47,804 nucleotides of DNA from a virus (lineage: Duplodnaviria > Heunggongvirae > Uroviricota > Caudoviricetes), in IMG/VR virus record IMGVR_UViG_2541047728_000005. One strand, 5' to 3'. Both the position numbers and the translations under genes were made by a program. Shown piece after piece: positions 23,181 through 41,507 of this stretch. A model generated the notes under the pieces. The model did no database searches. It was not told the origin of the DNA and saw only the letters and a list, made by a program, of their open reading frames with translations. How positions within the stretch are numbered: the first letter of the stretch is position 1; the number at the start of each line of letters is the position of its first letter.

Positions 23181-23450
23181 TCACTCATCATCTCCTGCCG
23201 CACATACAACCTCACAAAAAACATCAGCGGAATGTTTCTTTTTGAATGAATGGCGCTCAAAACCGCACTCAATATCAGGCGCAAAAACATCCACCACATA
23301 CGGTCTTTCAGAATGTTTGTTTTCCCAACGATAAACCGTAGTGACGTTGAAATGTTTTAACGCTTCACGGAACTCAACGCTGCCCGTCAGGTTTTTTGAG
23401 GTCAGGTATTGCAGGAGGTTTTTTACTACTTCACGGTCTTGTACTTTCAT
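23181..23450 (-). CDS. Hypothetical protein, first gene behind conserved promoter-leader cassette copy 1
   Basis: 89-aa ORF; ATG preceded by conserved CCGGAGATAACCCG leader/RBS. Confidence 0.5.
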   Translation of the reverse strand: MKVQDREVVKNLLQYLTSKNLTGSVEFREALKHFNVTTVYRWENKHSERPYVVDVFAPDIECGFERHSFKKKHSADVFCEVVCAAGDDE

Positions 23451-23457
23451 CGGGTTA

Positions 23458-23562
23458 TCTCCGGTTTAACCAGGGCGGGTATCGCTCGGTTTCGGGTATA
23501 ACCATAGGAAATTTTTTCCCACCTGTAAAGCACTTTTTATATAAATATATAATTATATAATT
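23458..23562 (-). promoter_or_regulatory. Conserved promoter-leader cassette, copy 1, with upstream palindromic TATA-rich array
   Basis: ~105 bp near-identical to 30406..30520 and 39875..39985; contains TTTACA-N17-TATGGT on minus strand and TATATAATTATATAA palindrome. Confidence 0.6.
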
Positions 23563-24144
23563 CTATGCCACTTGCCAGAGAGCATCATGCAACTGGATAC
23601 CTCCATTGCACTGGTTGCCCCAGCCATGCCAACCATCAGGTAAATCACCGCGAGCAAACAGCTCAATACGAGGAACATCACCTAACAGCCTTACCAGCTT
23701 GTCACGAACCACATCAGGCTTCCGAGAATGCTCCAGACGAGGCGATGTAAACGACTGAATGATCCCCGCATCAAGGCGGGTCGGCAATTTGCCTTTTACC
23801 GCAAACAAGCAATCTTCACTGTTTGCACGAGTCATATGCCCCATCCCCAGCTTATCTGGTTGTCGGCTACCACATTTGTTCCATGTGAAGCCCTTCATGG
23901 TCATAAGCCTGAATCCCCATGCTTTCACCACCAGCAACGCTTCTTCTGGCTGAGTCGGAACCCACCACATGGCCAACAAACACGATTCAGGATTAGCAAG
24001 CTGCCAGACAGGAATACGAGCAATATCCTCAGCTTTCATCGTTGAATACTTAAAACCAGCTCCACGATTCCCATCCTTACACTTATCTTTGTATTCCCAG
24101 GGGGGATCTGCATAAATCAGATTAAACAATGCAATTGCCTCCAT
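23563..24144 (-). CDS. DNA N6-adenine methyltransferase, MT-A70 family
   Basis: 193 aa with N-terminal catalytic motif IYADPPWEY. Confidence 0.8.
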   Translation of the reverse strand: MEAIALFNLIYADPPWEYKDKCKDGNRGAGFKYSTMKAEDIARIPVWQLANPESCLLAMWWVPTQPEEALLVVKAWGFRLMTMKGFTWNKCGSRQPDKLGMGHMTRANSEDCLFAVKGKLPTRLDAGIIQSFTSPRLEHSRKPDVVRDKLVRLLGDVPRIELFARGDLPDGWHGWGNQCNGGIQLHDALWQVA

Positions 24145-24621: not shown

Positions 24622-24667
24622 TGGTTGATGCGTGCGCCCATGAGAAAAGCGCATAGAATGTTGTAAC

Positions 24668-24700
24668 TATATATTTATATAATTATAGAAATATATATTA
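24668..24700. promoter_or_regulatory. TATA-rich palindromic repeat array (same family as parA-upstream repeats)
   Basis: tatatatttatataattatagaaatatatatta between spanin genes and tRNA. Confidence 0.45.
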
Positions 24701-28976: not shown

Positions 28977-29275
28977 GCCACAGCCCCTCTCAACGGCTTA
29001 ACTTTGGCTAATAAGGTGTTAAACAACATGGAGTTAGGATTCATGCCAAATGGCAATTCCGGTTTAGCGGAGTAGTACAGGCAACCATTTATTTTCCTGG
29101 TTGTTATCTGTCCTTCGGCAACCATGCTTCTCAGTCTGCAACGCATAGAGTTCTGCGACACACCAATGTGCTCCGCGATTACGTCCACTTTTGAACATGG
29201 GTGATCGGTCAGGAAATTAATCACATCTTGGGGGTTAATAATTTTGCGTTTCATTGTCGAGGCGTCCTTATACAT
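28973..29275 (-). CDS. Putative winged-helix DNA-binding protein
   Basis: 100 aa; segment DVIAEHIGVSQNSMRCRLRSMVAEGQI resembles wHTH; preceded by TATA-rich array. Confidence 0.4.
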   Translation of the reverse strand: MYKDASTMKRKIINPQDVINFLTDHPCSKVDVIAEHIGVSQNSMRCRLRSMVAEGQITTRKINGCLYYSAKPELPFGMNPNSMLFNTLLAKVKPLRGAVA

Positions 29276-29301
29276 TTATATAAATATATAATTCTATATA
29301 C
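29271..29301. promoter_or_regulatory. TATA-rich palindromic repeat array
   Basis: tacatttatataaatatataattctatatac. Confidence 0.45.
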
Positions 29302-29331: not shown

Positions 29332-30399
29332 TCAGGCTTTCAATAGCGATTCTTTCAGATATCGGGCATCAGCCAGGGCGTTTGGAGTAATCTTGCGAAC
29401 CCATGCATTACGGGTTGGACTCCACTTAAAGGCGCGTGATTTAAGCAGCGAACGAATGTTTGCCTCTGGTTTGCCAGGGAAATAAAACAGGATGCGGTTA
29501 TCCTCTGGATCTATCTCCATAGAAAAGCCGTCGTATTCTTCGCGCTGTGCTCCTGTTACAGACTTGACCGATTCAAGCTCCTTAATACGGCTCTGTAGTC
29601 GTTTGATTTCGGCGTTATTGTTGCTCAGTGCGTATGAAGGGAATCCGATGCGCCCACAGAAATCTCCGGCCAGTAACTCTTTGGCTTCGCTTTCTGTAAA
29701 CCTGAGATCGATTAATGCAGAAAGCTGCTGTATTTGGTCTTTTTTGTATTTGCGAATGGCCTTATTTGCGGCCTTCATTTTGACGTGTGACTTCATGCAG
29801 CCTTGCAGCTTACGAAGCAACTTAAATAGCGCATCAGGATCATCAGACGAAATTCCATTACGACCAACACCTGCGGCTTTGCTCTCGTAGTGTGATGCTT
29901 TACTTTCGCATTCAACAAACGCTTTTCTGAATAACGCATCAGCTTTAGACAAACGGCGGCGATGGCCTTTCGCGCTATAATGGTCAACTAAAATCGGCTG
30001 GCCTAACGGGATCACATCCAACAGGTCATGCGCTCGCTTATGCGCTACCGCACCTTCTTTTCTGGCTTTTTCTGCACGAGCAATATATCGGGCAAGACGC
30101 GCGTTCTGGCGTTCCTGATAGGTGTTTACGTAATCATCTCCGCGCTGCTGCTGTTCAAGCCATGCTTTGCGCAGATCTTCTGTTACATCCACCAGCTCCG
30201 CAGGGATACAACCAGTTTGGGCTTCATAAGAGTAACCATCCTCATAGATACGCCCATCGTCTTCAACAAAGAAAAAGGTTTCGTGCTCATCGCTTTTGAC
30301 CATACGACCATTAACATGGCGTAATAGGTAGCCAGTATCAGTGCTTAACAGGCTGTTAGGGTTGTTGATCCAGTCAGAAATAATTACTTGTTTATTCAT
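29332..30399 (-). CDS. Hypothetical 355-aa protein (possibly DUF3560-like), first gene behind cassette copy 2
   Basis: Track ORF starts inside conserved leader; start moved to ATG at 30399 preceded by CCGGAGAAATCTG. Confidence 0.5.
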   Translation of the reverse strand: MNKQVIISDWINNPNSLLSTDTGYLLRHVNGRMVKSDEHETFFFVEDDGRIYEDGYSYEAQTGCIPAELVDVTEDLRKAWLEQQQRGDDYVNTYQERQNARLARYIARAEKARKEGAVAHKRAHDLLDVIPLGQPILVDHYSAKGHRRRLSKADALFRKAFVECESKASHYESKAAGVGRNGISSDDPDALFKLLRKLQGCMKSHVKMKAANKAIRKYKKDQIQQLSALIDLRFTESEAKELLAGDFCGRIGFPSYALSNNNAEIKRLQSRIKELESVKSVTGAQREEYDGFSMEIDPEDNRILFYFPGKPEANIRSLLKSRAFKWSPTRNAWVRKITPNALADARYLKESLLKA

Positions 30400-30405
30400 C
30401 AGATT

Positions 30406-30520
30406 TCTCCGGTTTAACCAGGGCGGGTATCGCTCGGTTTCGGGTATAACCATAGGAAATTTTTTCCCACCTGTAAAGCACTTTTTATATAAATCTATAA
30501 TTATATATTTATAGATTTTC
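30406..30520 (-). promoter_or_regulatory. Conserved promoter-leader cassette, copy 2, immediately downstream of Q-like gene, with palindromic ATCTATAA...TTATAGAT array
   Basis: Near-identical to copies at 23458..23562 and 39875..39985. Confidence 0.6.
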
Positions 30521-34221: not shown

Positions 34222-34241
34222 AAGCGGGCTAACGCCCGCTT
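34222..34241 (+). terminator. Hairpin after 33843..34217, possible terminator
   Basis: aagcgggc-taac-gcccgctt. Confidence 0.4.
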
Positions 34242-34245
34242 ACAT

Positions 34246-34346
34246 GATTATAGATTTATATAATTATATAAAACGCTTTTCATCCGCCAAAAAGTTGGTT
34301 ATGCTTACCTCGTTCTATAAATATAGATTTATAGAATTATATAACC
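34246..34346. repeat. Two TATA-rich palindromic repeat arrays upstream of parA (candidate centromere/operator)
   Basis: gattatagatttatataattatataaaacgc and ctataaatatagatttatagaattatataacc; related arrays at seven other loci. Confidence 0.55.
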
Positions 34347-35021: not shown

Positions 35022-35056
35022 TATATAATTATAGTTTTATAGATTTATATAAGAGG
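35021..35056. promoter_or_regulatory. TATA-rich palindromic repeat array between parA and RHH gene
   Basis: atatataattatagttttatagatttatataagagg. Confidence 0.45.
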
Positions 35057-39382: not shown

Positions 39383-39451
39383 CCCAATGTAAGTTATCGG
39401 CTTGCCCCACAATAAGTTATCTATCTTCAAACGCCCCCTATATTAACACTC

Positions 39452-39476
39452 GCAAAGTGTCATTTTGACACTTTGC
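39452..39476. terminator. Perfect 11-bp inverted repeat between convergent genes
   Basis: GCAAAGTGTCA-ttt-TGACACTTTGC. Confidence 0.4.
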
Positions 39477-39485
39477 GCATTGTGT

Positions 39486-39866
39486 TTACTTAACGAGGAA
39501 TAAAAATGGTTTATCGTTCGGCGGTGTAATCGGGGCTGGCTCGCTTTTGCTCATGCGATCAGTGTACCAGGCCAACTCCTTGTCAAAGTAAGCCTGATTA
39601 AAATAGGCCATGAATGTGGTTTCAAATCCATAACGACCGCTAATACGGAGCATCTGATTGCCGTTCTCTGTTTCCAGATATACCTGGGCACGTTCCTGAT
39701 TCTCCTTCAGCCAGGTTAAAGCCTCATCGCACGAGGACAAACGATACTCATCATCGTAGCCGTCATCGATGCGGCTTGAAGAAGAACGGCAAATCACGCC
39801 AACAGAACCAGCCAGGATAGTTTGAATTTTAAGGAAAGCGTTTTTGCGGATTTTAATCATGCTCAT
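39486..39866 (-). CDS. Hypothetical protein with N-terminal signal-like hydrophobic segment, first gene behind cassette copy 3
   Basis: 126-aa ORF; ATG preceded by conserved CCGGAGATAACCCG leader. Confidence 0.45.
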   Translation of the reverse strand: MSMIKIRKNAFLKIQTILAGSVGVICRSSSSRIDDGYDDEYRLSSCDEALTWLKENQERAQVYLETENGNQMLRISGRYGFETTFMAYFNQAYFDKELAWYTDRMSKSEPAPITPPNDKPFLFLVK

Positions 39867-39874
39867 CGGGTTAT

Positions 39875-39985
39875 CTCCGGTTTAACCAGGGCGGGTATCG
39901 CTCGGTTTCGGGTATAACCTTAGGAAATTTTTTCCCACCTGTAAAGCACTTTTTATATAAATCTATAATTATATAATTCTATGAG
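39875..39985 (-). promoter_or_regulatory. Conserved promoter-leader cassette, copy 3, with TATA-rich array
   Basis: Near-identical to 23458..23562 and 30406..30520 (single a/t difference in 'aaccttagg'). Confidence 0.6.
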
Positions 39986-39988
39986 CGC

Positions 39989-40013
39989 AAAAAAGCCCCT
40001 TTGCAACAGGGGC
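39989..40013 (-). terminator. Rho-independent terminator after higA
   Basis: Minus strand GCCCCT-gttgcaa-AGGGGC followed by TTTTTT. Confidence 0.65.
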
Positions 40014-40029
40014 TTATCATTCGTTCTGA

Positions 40030-40329
40030 TCAGATGTTAAACGCTATTCGTTTTCCTGTGGGAAGCTCAACATCCAGGCTTAATTTGCCTCCCATAGCTT
40101 CAACGTAACGCTTTAATGTCGCCAGCTTTAAATCATTTCCGCGCTGCTCCAGCTTTGTTACTGCTGGCTGGCTTATACCCATCGCCTCAGCAACCTGTTT
40201 TTGTGATAACTGGAGTTCTTCACGCATCATCTGCAAGCCGACCTCAAGAATCATCTCATCTGCCATTTCTTTAATTCGCGCCTGGCTTTCAGGTGAACGG
40301 CTGGCAATCGCCTCATCTAATGTTCTCAT
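40030..40329 (-). CDS. higA: HigA-like antitoxin (XRE HTH)
   Basis: 99 aa; HTH LSQKQVAEAMGISQPAVTKLEQ; directly downstream of and overlapping toxin gene. Confidence 0.7.
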   Translation of the reverse strand: MRTLDEAIASRSPESQARIKEMADEMILEVGLQMMREELQLSQKQVAEAMGISQPAVTKLEQRGNDLKLATLKRYVEAMGGKLSLDVELPTGKRIAFNI

Positions 40330-40682
40330 TACTTGCTCTCCAGTGTGTTCAGATGTGCTGCAAACTCATCCTCAGCTATACGCACCAGTTTTTCATAAAA
40401 CCGCTTATCGTTACTTTTGTCTCCTGCACAAAGAACGATGGCCCGGCGAATCGGATCGAACGCATAAAAGGCTCTTATCGGACGGCCAGAAAACTGAACG
40501 CGAAGCTCTTTCATATTTTTGTACCGAGAACCTTTTACGGTATCGGCATATGGCCTGGGTAACTCAGGTCCGTAAACCTGTAGCTTTTTCAAATCAGCCA
40601 AAACCTTTTCCTGAAGAGCGTCTTCTTGCTCATTTAGCCAGTCGTCAAATCGCTGGCTAAAAAGTACCGTCCACATGCTCAA
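40329..40682 (-). CDS. higB: HigB-like toxin (RelE/ParE superfamily, Gp49-like addiction module killer)
   Basis: 117 aa; toxin-first order with XRE antitoxin; pattern ...DWLNEQ...KNMKELRVQFSGRPIRAFYAFDPIRRAIVLCAGDK. Confidence 0.7.
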   Translation of the reverse strand: MSMWTVLFSQRFDDWLNEQEDALQEKVLADLKKLQVYGPELPRPYADTVKGSRYKNMKELRVQFSGRPIRAFYAFDPIRRAIVLCAGDKSNDKRFYEKLVRIAEDEFAAHLNTLESK

Positions 40683-40686
40683 TCCT

Positions 40687-40732
40687 ATAACCTGTAGTTT
40701 ATATCACTAACTATATAACCTGTGAGTTATAA
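40687..40732. promoter_or_regulatory. Tandem palindromic operators upstream of higBA
   Basis: tataacctgtagtttata and tataacctgtgagttataa. Confidence 0.5.
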
Positions 40733-40920
40733 TTTCAAGAAAAACGGGGCTATTTAACATAATGGACGTTATCGGCACCACCGGATCACCGTTCATTGTC
40801 GGATCTAAAAAATCCGCTCAAAAGATCATGTTTTCCTGGGCGTTTTCCACCGTTTTTTATGTTGCTTATTTGTTAATGAAATCTCGTTTTCAGTTTCGCC
40901 TCATTTTCGACGCGAAAGCC

Positions 40921-41211
40921 CTATTTTTGTGACTTTACTCCTGGCATATGGACTTCCCAGCGACGAATCCCCATAGCTGCGCAAAAATCAGCCACATAAT
41001 TCAATCCCGCCCATTCGCGGATACCACCACGGGCTTTTTCAATGAAAACGGCAATCCCTTTTTTATTGAGAGCAAAAAGCCGCCAGCTTTTTGTCACTTC
41101 GTCCTGGGTAGCCACAACACAAGTGAAAGCTCCCATGCGATACAGGTCCAAGAACTCTTTGCGTGTTTTGCGTACAAGTTCCATAACAAACCTCATATTT
41201 GCATGTTTCAA
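40921..41211 (-). CDS. Hypothetical protein
   Basis: 96-aa ORF downstream of replication region. Confidence 0.35.
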   Translation of the reverse strand: MKHANMRFVMELVRKTRKEFLDLYRMGAFTCVVATQDEVTKSWRLFALNKKGIAVFIEKARGGIREWAGLNYVADFCAAMGIRRWEVHMPGVKSQK

Positions 41212-41507
41212 ACATCTGTTTTGTTATCAATGAAGATTAACCCTAACCCAGCGAAGTAACACAGCAGCGCCCAGGCTGCATACGGAATGCTGGATCTGGA
41301 TGTGGACTCCTTTAACATCTGCCAGTTGCGAACATTGCGACTATCTTTTAAGCCTAGTTTTTTGGCTAACTGCGAGCCGCTCATTCCGGTCAGGCCAATG
41401 ACTGCCCGAACTTCTCCACATGTAGGAGATTCCCATTCATCCGCTTTTTTTAAACAAGCCGGATTCAACATTTTTAAAACAGTATCTTTATCCATAACCA
41501 TCTCCAT
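41208..41507 (-). CDS. Putative HTH DNA-binding protein
   Basis: 99 aa with IGLTGMSGSQLAKKLGLKDSRNVRNW HTH-like segment. Confidence 0.4.
   Translation of the reverse strand: MEMVMDKDTVLKMLNPACLKKADEWESPTCGEVRAVIGLTGMSGSQLAKKLGLKDSRNVRNWQMLKESTSRSSIPYAAWALLCYFAGLGLIFIDNKTDV

Follow-up and report, generated by a model that had tools for sequence, protein, structure and literature searches.

What is the pair of short genes on the viral record IMGVR_UViG_2541047728_000005 (IMG/VR; Caudoviricetes), and what do the two palindromes in front of it do? The window, meaning the whole stretch of DNA that was analysed, is 47,804 nucleotides (nt) long, and the gene pair lies between positions 40,030 and 40,676. 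The original prediction, made from the sequence, was a HigB/HigA-type addiction module with tandem palindromic operators, thought to contribute to the maintenance of a phage-plasmid. The present analysis shows that the locus is real, that it was correctly interpreted and that it is an ordinary representative of an already known module type. It very probably represents a type II toxin-antitoxin system of the 'HigBA/Tad-Ata' kind (Gp49, PF05973), organised as a self-contained operon, in which the antitoxin would neutralise a RelE-fold toxin and repress the operon through the two palindromes, and by which plasmid loss would be penalised. The elements of the operon, from the promoter to the terminator, are as follows.

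40733-40738, minus strand: predicted -35 hexamer TTGAAA of the operon promoter (promoter scan of 39850-41000)
40714-40731, no strand assigned: putative distal operator, reading TATAACT-CACA-GGTTATA on the minus strand (pattern and palindrome searches)
40710-40715, minus strand: predicted -10 hexamer TATAGT
40686-40703, no strand assigned: putative proximal operator, reading TATAAAC-TACA-GGTTATA on the minus strand (pattern and palindrome searches)
40683-40686, minus strand: Shine-Dalgarno sequence AGGA, 6 nt ahead of the toxin ATG (read from the sequence)
40329-40676, minus strand: toxin gene with ATG start, 115 amino acids, Gp49-family RelE-fold protein, probable ribosome-dependent mRNA endonuclease
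40030-40329, minus strand: antitoxin gene, 99 amino acids, XRE-type helix-turn-helix (HTH) protein (HTH_3 match)
about 39989-40015, minus strand: predicted intrinsic-terminator-like hairpin, AAGCCCCU-GUUGCAA-AGGGGCUU followed by a U run (RNA fold)

Direct reading of the window places both genes on the minus strand in one operon. The toxin gene comes first and is followed by the gene for the HTH_3 antitoxin, whose ATG shares one base with the toxin stop codon (TAATG), so the toxin-first order with an XRE-type antitoxin was rightly recognised. An alternative in-frame TTG at 40682, which is the mechanical start of the open reading frame, would give a toxin of 117 amino acids. The scan of 39850-41000 returned a single sigma-70-like site, with TTGAAA (40738-40733) and TATAGT (40715-40710) separated by a 17-nt spacer and 10 of 12 positions matching. 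A GC-rich hairpin lies 15 nt past the antitoxin stop; its predicted folding energy is -16.5 kcal/mol with a z-score of only -1.9, and the promoter scan independently flagged a hairpin at 39998-40012. The toxin-antitoxin unit looks transcriptionally self-contained because it has its own promoter and a terminator-like hairpin. The span first proposed for the module, 40329-40732, is correct in that it holds the toxin gene and both palindromes but too short in that the antitoxin gene, the -35 hexamer and the terminator lie outside it. No known RNA family was found in 39400-41300 at E ≤ 1. The gene pair upstream was considered as a third component of the module and rejected, as it has no family match and a weak model with a generic eL38-like fold.

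The two palindromes quoted in the original prediction are present exactly as given: TATAACCTGTAGTTTATA occupies 40686-40703 and TATAACCTGTGAGTTATA(A) occupies 40714-40731(2). With starts 28 nt apart and 15 of 18 positions identical, they are placed over the operon's own promoter and leader, as is expected of a Gp49-type HigBA module. The distal palindrome occupies the spacer between the -35 and -10 hexamers and overlaps the latter by 2 nt, and the proximal one spans the region from the expected +1, predicted to lie near 40703, to the Shine-Dalgarno sequence. When the pattern TATAAC-N6-GTTATA is searched with at most one mismatch, these are the only two sites in the 47,804 nt, with 0.09 expected by chance, and the element has no further copy at that stringency. 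Two pattern matches were reached in just one of 100 shuffled windows. The sites are better described as the 7-4-7 palindrome TATAA(A/C)(C/T)-N4-GGTTATA, in which six of the seven arm positions pair in each copy. An SOS/LexA box of the kind proposed for the IncC promoter was also considered and rejected: CTGT-N8-ACAG with at most one mismatch has no match in 40680-40760, and its count across the window is at chance level.

The palindromes recur with the gene pair in other bacteria and plasmids. The comparison set consists of 80 related loci from contigs chosen as one genome per species, with toxins 52-98% identical. In 78 of these a homologous HTH gene of about 99 amino acids lies immediately behind the toxin gene or overlaps it; the remaining two (L046 and L057) have truncated toxin frames. 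Palindromes of the 7-4-7 form with at least six of seven pairs were counted in the 110 nt upstream of the toxin gene, where they are 6.5-fold enriched (0.0157 per position compared with 0.0024 elsewhere in the loci, for the window and the 80 loci together). In the relatives their positions centre on about -55 and about -28 relative to the start codon. A TTGAnn hexamer recurs immediately 5' of the distal palindrome, and the 3' arm of this palindrome merges into a TATAAT-like -10 element.

The half-sites have a constant outer TATA, while positions 5-7 vary by clade and give TATAAGC, TATAAAC, TATAGAC and TATAGCn; the window has TATAACC. Among 32 non-identical loci with two sites at a spacing of 21-29 nt, positions 5-7 agree between the two sites of a locus in 77% of the comparisons, as against 51% after permutation, and none of 5000 permutations reached the observed agreement. 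The half-site classes run parallel to variants of the recognition helix in the cognate antitoxin: ...SQPAVTKLEQ is found with TATAACC, ...SQPAITQ[IL]EQ with TATAAGC, ...KQPSLSAIEN with TATAGAC and ...KQP[ST][LV]A[KR][IM]EQ with TATAGC. A concerted change of both sites together with the DNA-reading helix is what is expected if the antitoxin binds them. The co-varying half-sites that track the recognition helix thus argue for autorepression by the antitoxin, and the prediction of tandem palindromic operators gains support from their uniqueness in the window, their conservation and their co-variation in relatives.

The toxin scores 81.2 bits (E 5.7e-23) with the Pfam family Gp49 (PF05973), whose gathering threshold is 23.9, and its residues 14-107 cover profile positions 1-89 of 90. 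This was the only Pfam match at E ≤ 0.01; neither PF05015 nor the ParE family PF05016 was found. The toxin also matches PHROG 3445 'toxin' at 2e-33, and NCBIfam gives only a sub-threshold RelE/ParE match. Searches of PDB sequences with phmmer and with hmmsearch, using profiles of 33 and 60 sequences, rendered no toxin structure at E up to 10. An AlphaFold2 model built from 33 homologues is confident, with a mean per-residue confidence (pLDDT) of 90.5, and its elements are a strand at the N-terminus, three short helices, a sheet of three strands and a long helix at the C-terminus (residues 91-114). When this model was compared with the PDB by Foldseek the top matches were all RelE/HigB-type toxins, and by fold it is nearest to Streptococcus pneumoniae HigB and Mycobacterium tuberculosis HigB1. 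A long C-terminal helix is typical of 'Gp49-like' toxins (PMC9098466). As modelled, the toxin is a RelE fold with such a helix. Residues E57, R59, R68, K87 and Y94 are invariant or nearly so in 60 homologues, down to 35% identity, and the toxin keeps G64, the residue altered in the inactivating mutation of IncC HigB. The family is large, with 2,385 clusters (50% identity) at E ≤ 1e-3 in a scan of 1.84 billion representative sequences.

Damaged forms of the toxin occur among the relatives. In the Yersinia pestis protein P0010 a stretch within a core strand is scrambled, FESDSSGYRS replacing FDPIRRAIVL, as from a double frameshift. In L046 and L057 the toxin frame, walked from the start of the match, ends after 29 and 21 codons, respectively. 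Decay of the toxin while the antitoxin is kept is a known fate of such modules. The toxin also aligns with the last 100 residues of NsnC, which PADLOC lists as a candidate defence protein (E 6e-7); this suggests that NsnC terminates in a Gp49-like RelE domain.

The antitoxin matches Pfam HTH_3 (E 3.9e-10), and an identical antitoxin sequence is present on at least 1000 contigs. Its matches among PDB sequences are M. tuberculosis HigA3 (6LTY, 4.8e-5) and HigA2 (7EWC, 2.5e-4) and S. pneumoniae HigA (6AF3_B, 4.6e-3). By these sequence matches it resembles the HigA partners of Gp49-like toxins.

To which of the known systems does the pair belong? Judged from its sequence, the locus belongs with the 'HigBA/Tad-Ata' systems of the Gp49-domain type, within a sub-clade that also contains those of IncC and Acinetobacter plasmids. 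HigBA of IncC ('tad-ata-like') has a Gp49-type toxin of equal length that is 54-55% identical to the one in the window, and its antitoxin is an XRE protein of 100 amino acids with 46% identity. It is likewise toxin-first and plasmid-borne and shares G64. The IncC toxin is toxic and neutralised by its antitoxin, the pair acts as an addiction module and the mutation G64V inactivates it (PMC8265657). The IncC promoter also holds a 7-4-7 TATA-type palindrome, TATAGGT-TTGA-ATCTATA, but only this one was seen, with a half-site TATAGNT, and the genes are 4 nt apart whereas those in the window overlap. A non-canonical SOS box and induction by ciprofloxacin have been proposed for IncC, with no counterpart detected here, and IncC is a conjugative plasmid, not a phage-plasmid. 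On the IncC plasmid pSH111_166 (L083, 548-567) the palindrome upstream of higB lies directly upstream of the proposed 'non-canonical SOS box' (PMC8265657). By analogy with the sites described here, it is likely a HigA operator.

A pair on an 11-kb Acinetobacter plasmid is closer to the window, with 57-59% identity for the toxin and 62% for the antitoxin. Its toxin and antitoxin are 52% and 51% identical to those of IncC, and because this agrees with the published identity of 51% between IncC and HigBA2 of Acinetobacter baumannii pAB120, the pair appears to be equivalent to HigBA2. This system resembles the one in the window in its reverse-order operon and HTH antitoxin, but a lone palindrome, TATAGAC-TGTA-ATCTATA at -31, was found where the window has two. 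HigB2 of pAB120 is a ribonuclease that degrades RNA in vitro; HigA2 represses the operon, and the toxin-antitoxin complex does so more strongly (PMC5906591). HigBA2 also stabilises an unstable plasmid (PMC5906591).

The founders of Pfam Gp49 are gp49/gp48 of phage N15 and Tad-Ata of Paracoccus plasmid pAMI2 (cited in PMC5906591). They share the Pfam family, the toxin-first order and the HTH antitoxin with the pair studied here, and N15 also the residence on a phage-plasmid. They are distant relatives, however: the N15 pair gives an hhalign probability of 92.5% (E 4.9e-7) and 26% identity over 84 columns for the toxins and 35% over 57 residues for the antitoxins; N15 gp49 is also shorter (103 amino acids), and the region upstream of it shows no TATA-type palindromes. 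A stabilising function for both N15 gp49/gp48 and Tad-Ata of pAMI2 was reportedly described by Dziewit in 2007. The systems with solved structures, S. pneumoniae HigBA (6AF3/6AF4) and M. tuberculosis HigB1 of TAC (7NBU/7AWK; PMC9098466), are 15-19% identical and undetectable by HMMER. Both are chromosomal, and TAC in addition requires a SecB-like chaperone that is absent here.

The name HigB/HigA needs a qualification. The original 'hig' system of plasmid Rts1 / Proteus vulgaris works alike, being toxin-first with an XRE antitoxin, two promoter-overlapping palindromic operators and a ribosome-dependent RelE-fold ribonuclease (PMC12266136). The locus is nevertheless not in the Rts1 HigB family in the strict sense, since the toxin has no PF05015 match, its fold is distant and its closest structural neighbour is not an Rts1-type HigB. 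The HigB/HigA-type assignment thus holds for the Gp49-type 'HigBA/Tad-Ata' architecture and not for the Rts1 family. The toxin also has no match to PF06296, the Vibrio cholerae HigB2 type (Pfam assignment according to PMC11980606), although records of Yersinia phages label it 'higB2'. ParE membership finds no support either, as PF05016 is not matched and ParE is not the closest structure. The phd-doc system of phage-plasmid P1 is analogous in function, since it too is an addiction module of a phage kept as a plasmid (PMC7969092). Its proteins have no relation to those of the window, Doc being a Fic-fold kinase, and its antitoxin comes first.

That the element is a phage-plasmid, as had been assumed, is confirmed. 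Along its entire length the window agrees at 99.97% with pMB9698_3, a circular plasmid of 47,715 bp. This plasmid has repA and parA together with genes for terminase, portal, capsid, sheath, tube, baseplate, holin and endolysin, a full contractile-tail (myovirus) set. The window is therefore a complete 48-kb phage-plasmid of Escherichia coli, with repA 1.4 kb from the toxin-antitoxin module. The isolated Yersinia phages vB_YpM_39, vB_YpM_41 and vB_YpM_44 share the 1-kb region of the module at 99.2-99.3%. An assignment to the pSLy3 phage-plasmid group was rejected because pSLy3 belongs to the SSU5 supercommunity and the window is a 48-kb element with contractile-tail genes.

The 711-bp operon was found in 100 of 5,426 complete Escherichia coli genomes, and 103 of its 104 places are on plasmids. 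Most carriers are replicons of 46-52 kb like the window, and some are plasmids of 6.7-161 kb. In a plasmid collection, tblastn with the toxin gave 1,982 records, mainly conjugative plasmids of Acinetobacter, Klebsiella, Escherichia and Salmonella. Both genes are under purifying selection, with ratios of nonsynonymous to synonymous differences (pN/pS) of 0.07-0.24 for the toxin and 0.09-0.21 for the antitoxin when compared with relatives in which synonymous sites are nearly saturated. One module with a toxin 98% identical to that of the window is found in a Firmicute assembly, Amphibacillus jilinensis Y1 Scaffold15 (L003), and its upstream region is that of Y. pestis NCTC5923 (L004). This contig is probably an assembly contamination.

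How would such a module work? The single promoter would first give the toxin and then, by translational coupling, the antitoxin. The RelE-fold toxin is most likely an endonuclease that cuts ribosome-bound mRNA, and the antitoxin would neutralise it by direct binding. A dimer of the antitoxin, either alone or, as in A. baumannii, probably with the toxin as co-repressor, is expected to occupy the two 18-bp palindromes. When bound, the operators would cover the spacer and the -10 hexamer as well as the region from +1 to the Shine-Dalgarno sequence, so that RNA polymerase is blocked and the promoter is switched off. If the plasmid or the supply of antitoxin is lost, a presumably labile antitoxin would decay, the toxin would arrest growth and plasmid-free segregants would be penalised. 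By analogy with the tested relatives, the protein of 115 amino acids should be toxic and the protein of 99 amino acids should rescue the cells, and a role in maintenance of the phage-plasmid through such a stabilising effect is plausible.

Several points weigh against this reading of the locus. No paper on it was found. The RelE fold comes from the AlphaFold2 model with no sequence link to solved structures, and the correspondence of the E57-x-R59...R68...K87 spacing to the catalytic set E66/R68/R77/K95 of M. tuberculosis HigB1 (PMC9098466) is one of equal spacing and conservation, not of a residue-level structural alignment. Some Gp49 toxins, namely M. tuberculosis HigB2 and HigB3, are non-toxic (PMC9098466). 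The co-variation of helix and half-sites is inflated by shared ancestry, with which it is confounded, and the operator spacing of 21-29 nt among relatives implies no fixed helical phasing. The phage-plasmid also has ParA, and the share of the module in maintenance may therefore be small. Deletion of higBA2 from native pAB120 did not destabilise that plasmid (PMC5906591).

The pAB120 result bears on the question of what the module is selected for. The same machine could serve anti-phage defence, by abortive infection or exclusion, or stabilise lysogeny instead of killing segregants. The element is after all a temperate phage as well as a plasmid, PHROGs places the toxin family in 'moron, auxiliary metabolic gene and host takeover', a review of the RelE/ParE superfamily treats its defence toxins (PMC11980606) and the weak match to the C-terminal part of NsnC points the same way. 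On the other hand, no complete known defence system was matched and both tested relatives stabilise test plasmids (PMC8265657, PMC5906591). Near-identical copies of the module lie on unrelated plasmids of 6.7-161 kb and its distant homologues are mostly on conjugative plasmids, as fits a general addiction cassette. Because of this spread across unrelated plasmids addiction is favoured, and a defence or lysogeny role is rather unlikely. It is improbable that the toxin is inactive or weakened like HigB2 and HigB3 of M. tuberculosis, with the pair kept as an HTH regulator and a passenger gene. Such non-toxic members do exist in Gp49 (PMC9098466), and in some relatives the toxin gene is disrupted (truncated in L046 and L057, with a scrambled core-strand segment in P0010), but here the gene is intact, and purifying selection acts on it as strongly as on the antitoxin gene. 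The toxin retains E57, R59, R68, K87 and Y94 together with G64, whose mutation abolishes toxicity in IncC HigB (PMC8265657), and a dead toxin is unlikely because residues and gene are thus conserved.

Two further explanations concern the target of the toxin and the nature of the palindromes. Poisoning of DNA gyrase in the manner of ParE, in place of mRNA cleavage, is very improbable: the best and longest structural alignments (about 100 residues compared with 79) are to ribosome-dependent ribonucleases with the same long C-terminal helix, the ParE family of Pfam is not matched at E ≤ 0.01, and HigB2 of A. baumannii, whose apparent equivalent is 57-59% identical to the window toxin, degrades RNA in vitro (PMC5906591). 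The palindromes might in turn not be operators of the antitoxin; they could simply be part of an AT-rich promoter, or bind some other factor, for example LexA or a phage-plasmid repressor. Their arms hold TATA words resembling -10 elements, the pattern at two mismatches also matches a repeated AT-rich cassette and an SOS box has been proposed for the IncC promoter (PMC8265657). This explanation is the hardest to credit, as there is no LexA-box-like match with at most one mismatch in 40680-40760, the palindromes stay with the gene pair in many genera without this phage, on chromosomes as well as on plasmids, and their specificity positions change together in both sites and with the recognition helix of the antitoxin. 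An autoregulated addiction operon is thus still the preferred interpretation of the locus.

RefSeq already labels the two proteins as a RelE/ParE-family toxin and an HTH protein, and phage records in GenBank use the name 'higB2'. The importance of the locus beyond annotation is small, since two relatives at 46-62% identity are already characterised experimentally. The present analysis adds a precise map of the operon in which promoter and leader are overlain by two putative operators, assigns the toxin to the Gp49 clade and not to Rts1 HigB, and provides comparative evidence from 80 loci that the two operators co-evolve with the recognition helix of the antitoxin. The operator map and its co-variation are the only new detail, as these operators were not described in the IncC and A. 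baumannii papers: the text of PMC8265657 contains neither 'palindrom' nor 'inverted repeat', and that of PMC5906591 lacks 'inverted repeat' and has 'palindrom' solely in the title of a reference. The map could guide the design of binding assays, or work on specificity and cross-talk among the many HigA-like antitoxins of enterobacterial plasmids.

At two mismatches the operator pattern has 14 matches in the window compared with 1.9 expected. Seven of the 12 extra matches are TATA-type 7-4-7 palindromes within copies of one repeated AT-rich promoter cassette. These cassette palindromes, for example TATAAATCTATAATTATA, diverge from the operators of the toxin-antitoxin operon at half-site positions 6-7, and a weak recognition of them by the antitoxin is conceivable.

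23540-23557, 24662-24679, 30488-30513, 34316-34333, 35024-35041 and 39956-39973: operator-like sites at two mismatches

One copy of the seven-copy cassette lies directly downstream of the toxin-antitoxin operon. It is conceivable, though improbable, that the two operators are part of a family-wide code linking helix variants to TATA-N3 half-sites, and that the antitoxin or the complex acts weakly on the cassette in addition to autorepression. If true, such cross-action would couple toxin-antitoxin status to gene expression of the phage-plasmid or to anti-phage defence, beyond segregational killing.

The cassette itself is a repeat of about 121 bp, 95-99% identical, with three copies in the same orientation at 39863-39983, 23447-23567 and 30395-30512. 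In each copy an AT-rich promoter-like part that contains AATTATATAATT, a perfect palindrome of 12 bp, is joined by a leader that is conserved over about 70 nt and predicted to form hairpins, and by a ribosome-binding site with the ATG of a gene on the minus strand. The repeat has no match in Rfam, and three copies are too few for covariation analysis. A core of about 28 bp, also AT-rich, is found at four more sites (24669-24697, 29275-29298, 34240-34263 and 35023-35052). The repeated cassette appears to be targeted by a regulator whose action extends over the entire phage-plasmid. The genes led by the repeat are a hypothetical gene at 39486-39866, a second hypothetical gene with its start near 23450 and a DUF3560 gene that begins near 30398.

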